DNA of 231 nucleotides. Source: Escherichia coli (GTDB taxonomy: Bacteria; Pseudomonadota; Gammaproteobacteria; Enterobacterales; Enterobacteriaceae). This document shows, piece after piece, positions 1 to 231 of this stretch (position 1 is its first letter; every line of letters starts with the position of its first letter). Made by a program: the position numbers and the translations under genes. Location: the NCBI RefSeq assembly GCF_003334255.1, contig NZ_QOWU01000278.1; one strand, written 5' to 3'. The notes below the pieces were generated by a model, which saw nothing but the letters and a program-made list of their open reading frames with translations, made no database searches and was not told the origin of the DNA.

Positions 1-231
1 TTTCCTCTTCTTATTTTGCAGTCGTCTTCATTCATTACCACGTCCAGACGCCAGTGCAGCTTATTCTCCACGTGCCAGTGATTTCGGATCGCTGTGGCGA
101 ATTTCTCAGCGGTTAAATCAGCAGAACTGATATAATATCTGACCGTCATTTCTGGCTCTTTCTTTTGTTCTGCTATTATGGACCGAAAGGAGACTGCCAC
201 GCATAATTTCTTCAGCCCTTTCCATTCAAAC
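1..231 (-). CDS. ISAs1-family (H-repeat-associated) DDE transposase, internal fragment; partial at both ends, with start and stop codons outside the window
   Basis: Seen in sequence: the reverse-complement frame with codons at plus-strand 230..3 is open for all 76 codons and translates to [76 protein letters not shown]. The other two minus frames have stops at plus 226-228 (TGA) and 212-214 (TGA). The plus frames have stops at 79-81 (tga), 128-130 (tga) and 114-116 (taa). Established knowledge: the HW-x-EN-x-LHW-x-LD-x(3)-EDD block is the hallmark C-terminal motif of ISAs1-family transposases, and the peptide matches from memory the E. coli H-rpt proteins (YhhI/YdcC/YbfD-like paralogs). No gene symbol is given because the paralogs are near-identical and 231 bp cannot tell them apart. 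Confidence 0.93.
1..231 (-). mobile_element. Interior of an ISAs1-family insertion sequence (H-repeat / ISEc1-like); terminal inverted repeats and boundaries are not in the window
   Basis: Inferred from the transposase CDS call. ISAs1-family elements are single-ORF insertion sequences, so a transposase-internal window lies inside the element. No inverted repeats or target-site duplications are visible, so the element boundaries and whether the copy is complete are unknown. Confidence 0.8.

Follow-up and report, generated by a model that had tools for sequence, protein, structure and literature searches.

The yhhI locus and its antisense motif

The window, by which we mean the whole 231-nucleotide stretch of Escherichia coli DNA analysed here, is 100% identical to the reverse complement of positions 3625130-3625360 of the K-12 chromosome (NC_000913.3). 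It falls within yhhI (b3484, 3624378-3625514), annotated as an ISAs1-like element ISEc1 family transposase (ISEc1 / H-repeat) and located directly downstream of rhsB-yhhH. On the minus strand, one frame is open across the entire window and encodes a 76-residue fragment that matched the curated ISAs1 transposase model (NCBIfam NF033564, transpos_ISAs1; profile positions 227-296 of 314) with a score of 90.6 bits, above the cut-off of 70 (E=1e-25), and also matched Pfam DDE_Tnp_1 (E=8.6e-6). The sequence is widespread in the species: 5,234 of the 5,426 complete E. coli genomes carry a match to the window, with a median copy number of 3. The gene is AT-rich (41.5% GC), as is the yhhI-yhhH-rhsB tip block to which it belongs (30-43% GC vs 50-60% in the flanks), and yhhI shares with the class of H-NS-silenced promoters the context of AT-rich, horizontally acquired DNA. 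Silencing of the Rhs-tip/H-repeat block by H-NS in vivo is plausible from its base composition alone; our literature search for H-NS data on rhsB or yhhI found none. A genomic SELEX study reported a weak peak for RNA polymerase sigma-S in the yhhH-yhhI spacer, upstream of the window (U00096.2 ~3621930; PMC5493296). This peak is a candidate sense promoter of yhhI, unrelated to the antisense motif described below.

A pattern search of both strands returned a single match to the extended -10 consensus TGNTATAAT in the window, the plus-strand sequence TGATATAAT, which is perfect at 9/9 specified positions (Table 1). Its TG occupies positions 128-129 and its -10 hexamer, TATAAT, positions 131-136, in the plus-strand context ...gcagaacTGATATAATatctgacc.... 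An earlier note had described a perfect TGnTATAAT at this site, antisense to a transposase, overlying codons for Y-Y-I-S and lacking a -35 element. The pattern search, the translation and the upstream sequence (positions 105-113 read ctcagcggt) bear out this description, and the transposase belongs to the ISAs1 family. Dinucleotide-preserving shuffles of the window contained a mean of 0.01 TGNTATAAT matches, with at least one match in 1/200 shuffles. On the sense (minus) strand, positions 132-137 read TATTAT, which by eye agrees with the -10 consensus at 5/6 positions, including the A at position 2 and the T at position 6, and is not preceded by a TG. The AT-rich, palindrome-like core at these positions could be usable as a -10 in both directions.

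Table 1. Coordinates of the motif, its coding context and associated predicted elements (window positions unless another reference is named).
Feature	Position	Strand	Basis
Internal part of yhhI coding sequence, C-terminal DDE region	1..231	-	K-12 match, NF033564, DDE_Tnp_1
Extended -10-like motif TGATATAAT	128..136	+	Pattern search, sequence, genome mapping
K-12 equivalent of TGATATAAT	NC_000913.3 3625233 to 3625225	minus	Genome mapping
R-Y-Y-I-S-S codons, conserved ISAs1-family peptide	123..140	-	Translation, 80 related loci
-35 position at 17-bp spacing, AGCGGT (0/6 vs TTGACA)	108..113	+	Sequence, two-hexamer promoter scan
Predicted start site, 6-9 nt past the -10 hexamer	142..145	+	Predicted from sigma-70 spacing only
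TGCTATAAT (yncI)	L084 5899-5907; NC_000913.3 ~1530898-1530906	-	Over codons I-I-A of EIIAIDGK

Promoter elements and predicted transcript

We found no -35 element upstream of the motif. By eye, the hexamers located 16-18 bp from the -10 (AGCGGT, GCGGTT and CAGCGG) agree with TTGACA at 0-1 of 6 positions, and a two-hexamer promoter scan did not report the site. No UP element is present either: the stretch in which one would be expected (about window 84-105) is not rich in A/T. A separate two-hexamer promoter-like site, TGGACC-17 nt-CATAAT, is present at window 179-207 (+), also antisense to yhhI, with 9/12 matches. Sites of this type number 1 in the window vs 0.3 expected in shuffles and 4 in the wider region vs 5.7 expected.

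Sigma-70 promoters initiate transcription 6-9 nt after the -10 hexamer. Initiation at this distance from the motif would place the start at approximately 3625216-3625219 on the minus strand of NC_000913.3, with the predicted RNA heading toward the 5' end of yhhI; the equivalent positions would be ~737663-737666 at ybfL and ~1532654-1532657 at ydcC. Measured from the yhhI start codon (L001 3983), the motif (L001 3128-3136) is about 890 nt downstream in the gene and the predicted start (L001 3143) ~840 nt. An antisense RNA from this site would have to extend for ~840 nt or more to overlap the translation-initiation region of yhhI. Folding of the predicted transcript revealed nothing unusual compared to shuffled sequences (z = +0.81 for 148 nt and -0.10 for 350 nt), and an Rfam search of the region returned no family at E<=1; on these two grounds we rejected a structured antisense RNA or a member of a known RNA family. 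A terminator-like hairpin, CATCGCATCAGTTGTGATG followed by ATTTTTCCTT, is present on the antisense strand of yhhI at L001 3462-3480 (+), ~320 nt past the predicted start, and such hairpins occur at chance frequency in the region (2 found, 1.4 expected). We also dismissed an antisense open reading frame of 31 aa downstream of the predicted start (L001 3178-3273), which by eye has no Shine-Dalgarno sequence.

Coding origin of the motif

The minus-strand codons under the motif, AGA TAT TAT ATC AGT TCT, encode R-Y-Y-I-S-S of YhhI, and TGATATAAT is what the Y-Y-I-S codons (T)AT TAT ATC A(GT) read on the opposite strand. Only three positions beneath the motif are synonymous sites: window 129 (the G of TG), 132 (the A at -11) and 135 (the A at -8). 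We permuted synonymous codons within yhhI 20,000 times, keeping the protein and the codon usage of the gene exactly. The motif reappeared at the R-Y-Y-I-S-S site in 6.0% of the permutations, and 15.0% of them had at least one antisense TGNTATAAT somewhere in yhhI. Thus, the match is striking against the nucleotide null, yet unremarkable against the coding null. The practical outcome is a negative one: a conserved peptide and AT-rich codon usage can fully explain a perfect intragenic extended -10, and the correct null for intragenic promoter motifs is the permutation of synonymous codons (6-15% here) rather than nucleotide shuffling (about 1%).

A second, independent, perfect antisense extended -10, TGCTATAAT, is present in yncI, a K-12 pseudogene of the ISAs1 family, at a position in the protein that differs from that of TGATATAAT. 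In the 36 kb of K-12 sequence that we examined, 4/4 matches to TGNTATAAT were antisense to ISAs1-family reading frames. To judge from these sequences, such motifs would evidently arise readily in AT-rich ISAs1 genes.

Conservation among close copies

The motif and its flanks are identical in the K-12 paralogs ybfL and ydcC, which are 97% identical to the window, and all three K-12 paralogs tested retain the motif. Copies of ISEc1 in E. coli have diverged by about 3-8%. Among the ~17,107 E. coli copies in complete genomes, a 30-mer centred on the motif was kept in at least 14,047 (counts required an exact match of at least 28 bases), and two control 30-mers were found in 10,524 and 2,423. We rejected this excess as a measure of constraint, because conservation is average in unique sequences and the controls hold paralog-specific fixed differences. 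Indeed, in a set of 12 unique sequences from the Escherichia clade (identity of 90% or more), the motif-centred 30-mer ranked at the 41st percentile for conservation among all 30-mers of the window. At the three synonymous sites beneath the motif, the minor allele was counted 0, 1 and 2 times, and equally low variation is found in 19% of three-codon runs. A TAC variant within the same flanks was found in 3 E. coli copies only. Close relatives in which the motif is broken or reduced carry TAC (L035), TGT (L011) or ATG, with the TG lost (L009).

The earlier note had proposed that loss of the motif at synonymous positions across paralogous copies would refute a promoter. The motif is kept in the ISEc1 copies of E. 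coli, but in deeper ISAs1 lineages with the same peptide its synonymous sites vary freely. As conservation around the motif does not exceed that of the remaining window and broken copies occur among relatives, this comparison is underpowered within E. coli and goes against the promoter at greater depth.

Comparison across the ISAs1 family

We scanned one genome per species and recovered 80 loci encoding relatives of YhhI (42-98% identity), of which 60 unique near-full-length open reading frames clustered into 36 lineages at 85% nucleotide identity. The peptide is kept in nearly all of the 80 loci as R/H/K-Y/H/F/W-Y/F-I-S-S, and this near-universal retention indicates strong protein-level constraint on its amino acids. 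In the deeper lineages, however, its codons vary freely at synonymous sites and the -11 position is usually G (TAC). The full motif is present in 3/36 lineages, namely the ISEc1 cluster of Escherichia and two clusters of the Photorhabdus/Xenorhabdus type (~50% protein identity) in which TAT makes up 61-93% of the Tyr codons. The antisense hexamer TATAAT by itself is present in 6/36.

Motif upkeep beyond coding constraint, the mark of antisense control, was not evident. The 18 lineages that have Y-Y-I-S with an AGY serine include 3 with the full motif, and 2.37 are expected from the codon usage of each gene. Furthermore, TAT at the second Tyr, the source of the -11 A, is depleted (10/28 vs 17.2 expected, P=0.003) and ATC at the Ile, the source of the G in TG, is enriched (18/34 vs 11.1 expected, P=0.009); both P values assume independent lineages, which holds only approximately. 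The -11 A is the most critical base of a -10 element. A preference for C-ending codons at both residues would fit translational (accuracy) selection or the avoidance of spurious -10 elements, and this preference at two conserved residues is the reverse of what a maintained promoter would predict.

Some copies from the scan were in contigs assigned to unrelated taxa. YhhI shares 96-98% identity with the copies in L010 ('Proteobacteria bacterium') and L035 ('Candidatus Scatousia excrementigallinarum'), and those of L068-L072 ('Sporosarcina psychrophila', 'Bacillota bacterium', 'Planococcaceae bacterium' and 'Flavobacterium psychrophilum') are 57-58% identical to YhhI and share the codons of the R-Y-Y-I-S-S site with the K-12 yncI copy. 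Either the mis-binning of enterobacterial contigs or a recent transfer would account for these assignments.

Antisense transcription at the K-12 paralogs

Unstable antisense RNAs leave little steady-state signal. We used the ydcC and ybfL rows of a published strand-specific total RNA-seq table covering the wild type and two rnc mutants (PMC7373196, Table S1c). The sense/antisense values in these rows were 1.764/0.168, 1.886/0.164 and 0.744/0 RPM for ydcC, and 1.428/0.084, 0.615/0.082 and 0.124/0.372 RPM for ybfL (PMC7373196). Hence, antisense signal over two genes carrying the same motif was 0-0.37 RPM, with the handling of multi-copy reads unstated in the main text of the source. Double-stranded RNA captured with p19 gave 0.06-0.79 RPM for ydcC and ybfL vs 16-170 RPM for the nearby ybgA (PMC7373196). 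As far as these rows go, the two paralogs had no appreciable steady-state antisense RNA. This is weak negative evidence, because yhhI is outside the rows used and multi-copy read handling is unstated. Neither antisense transcription of yhhI nor antisense control of ISAs1 elements was the subject of any paper that our literature search identified.

A probable by-product of the coding sequence

We interpret the motif as a by-product of the coding sequence, arising where R-Y-Y-I-S-S is spelled in the AT-rich codons of yhhI, and assign this reading a probability of roughly 0.8. On this reading the motif follows from the spelling of a conserved peptide and is an ordinary feature. The ISAs1-family transposase needs the peptide; the AT-rich yhhI gene (41% GC) spells it AGA TAT TAT ATC AGT, and the reverse complement happens to read TGATATAAT. 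Perfect extended -10 elements recruit sigma-70 RNA polymerase in the absence of a -35 and are strong determinants of promoter activity. Given that the match to TGNTATAAT is perfect and that such elements are strong determinants, some real initiation could still take place. RNA polymerase may bind and fire weakly, independently of a -35, from a start near window 142-145 toward the 5' end of yhhI. Any antisense RNA so produced would be untranslated, probably terminated by Rho and short-lived, and silencing by H-NS of the block that contains the site is plausible in vivo. The motif is most likely a by-product sigma-70 site and would act, at most, as a weak, probably silenced, spurious antisense promoter, itself putative. 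It presumably has no function at this locus and matters little. Among the sequence comparisons, those that would speak against a by-product are the retention of the motif in the K-12 paralogs, its presence in at least 14,047 E. coli copies and the two Photorhabdus/Xenorhabdus-type carriers.

These same observations would be expected of a functional ISEc1 antisense promoter whose RNA pairs with the transposase mRNA and lowers its expression, like RNA-OUT (IS10) or RNA-C (IS30): a perfect extended -10 lies antisense to the transposase gene, every K-12 paralog tested and most E. coli copies retain it, and two distant Photorhabdus/Xenorhabdus-type lineages carry it. We nevertheless regard such a promoter as very improbable. 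The motif is not enriched in the family (3 vs 2.37 expected), the codon that supplies the -11 A is depleted, and the site is ~890 nt past the yhhI start codon, so that an RNA of at least ~840 nt would be needed. Moreover, the predicted transcript has neither a stable structure nor an Rfam family, antisense reads are near zero in the published rows for the paralogs, and the literature search found no paper on antisense control of ISAs1 elements. A functional antisense promoter in the insertion sequence, an idea raised in the earlier note, is unsupported, and the note's caution that the match 'may well be coincidental' agrees with the codon permutations, the family comparison and the missing -35. 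Extremely improbable, in our view, is a more restricted version in which a genuine antisense RNA made from the motif dampens expression of the ISEc1/H-repeat transposase, this control having arisen only in AT-rich enterobacterial lineages with TAT TAT ATC. If true, antisense control would thereby be described for the first time in the ISAs1 family.

The remaining alternatives concern how much RNA polymerase uses the site. It is well established that extended -10 elements work without a -35 and that a perfect TGnTATAAT is usually sufficient for some open-complex formation. The latter argues against an inert site, one that RNA polymerase never uses in vitro or in vivo and that is purely a coincidence of sequence. 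The absence of a -35 and of detectable antisense RNA in the paralog rows, as well as the ease with which the motif arises by chance under coding constraints, are all consistent with inertness, which we consider unlikely. At the other end, the motif could be an active but functionless spurious promoter with appreciable initiation in vivo, contributing to pervasive antisense transcription when, for example, H-NS or Rho function is impaired. In AT-rich E. coli genes, promoters of the intragenic and antisense kind have been measured by the hundreds (10.1101/2020.01.04.894907), and H-NS is reported to suppress such initiation (PMC3923964) in regions that, like this one, are AT-rich. The lack of a -35 and of an UP element, and paralog antisense reads at the floor in the wild type and rnc mutant columns used, make appreciable activity distinctly improbable.

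Comparison with known antisense promoters

In IS10, RNA-OUT is initiated close to where the transposase gene begins, covers the ribosome-binding site and folds into a stable stem-loop. The motif resembles the IS10 pOUT promoter in that it is a promoter-like element antisense to the transposase gene of an insertion sequence, but it lies ~890 nt into yhhI, its predicted RNA is unstructured and it is not conserved in the family. In IS30, an internal antisense promoter within the transposase reading frame makes RNA-C. The motif is likewise inside the reading frame rather than at its 5' end; in contrast to RNA-C, the transcript at the yhhI motif is a predicted one, and the comparative data show no selective maintenance. 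Within the ISAs1 family itself, IS1548 of Streptococcus agalactiae is reported to affect the expression of nearby genes (PMC7096684). Those effects are on adjacent genes, whereas the yhhI motif is mid-gene and points inward toward the transposase 5' end, not at a host gene next to the element.

The feature is of an already known kind. It has the perfect nine-base consensus and the missing -35 of the -35-independent sigma-70 promoters of E. coli that carry an extended -10 (TGnTATAAT), yet it differs from them in being intragenic, explained by codon choice, without a downstream gene and, as a promoter, putative. Closer still are the spurious intragenic promoters. A genome-wide reporter assay in E. 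coli identified 944 promoters inside genes, of which 300 were antisense; the set was enriched for AT-rich codons and for rare ones, AGA among them, and was associated with genes acquired horizontally (10.1101/2020.01.04.894907). Initiation within AT-rich genes of foreign origin is reportedly suppressed by H-NS (PMC3923964). The yhhI motif shares with the promoters of these reports its antisense orientation, its location in a mobile-element gene of 41% GC and its AT-rich or rare codons (AGA, TAT), and it has no apparent conserved function. Unlike them, for which activity was measured, the motif is a putative promoter, and H-NS binding is suggested here by base composition. If active, it would be one more among the hundreds of intragenic antisense promoters catalogued in E. 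coli, in an insertion-sequence gene of low expression.
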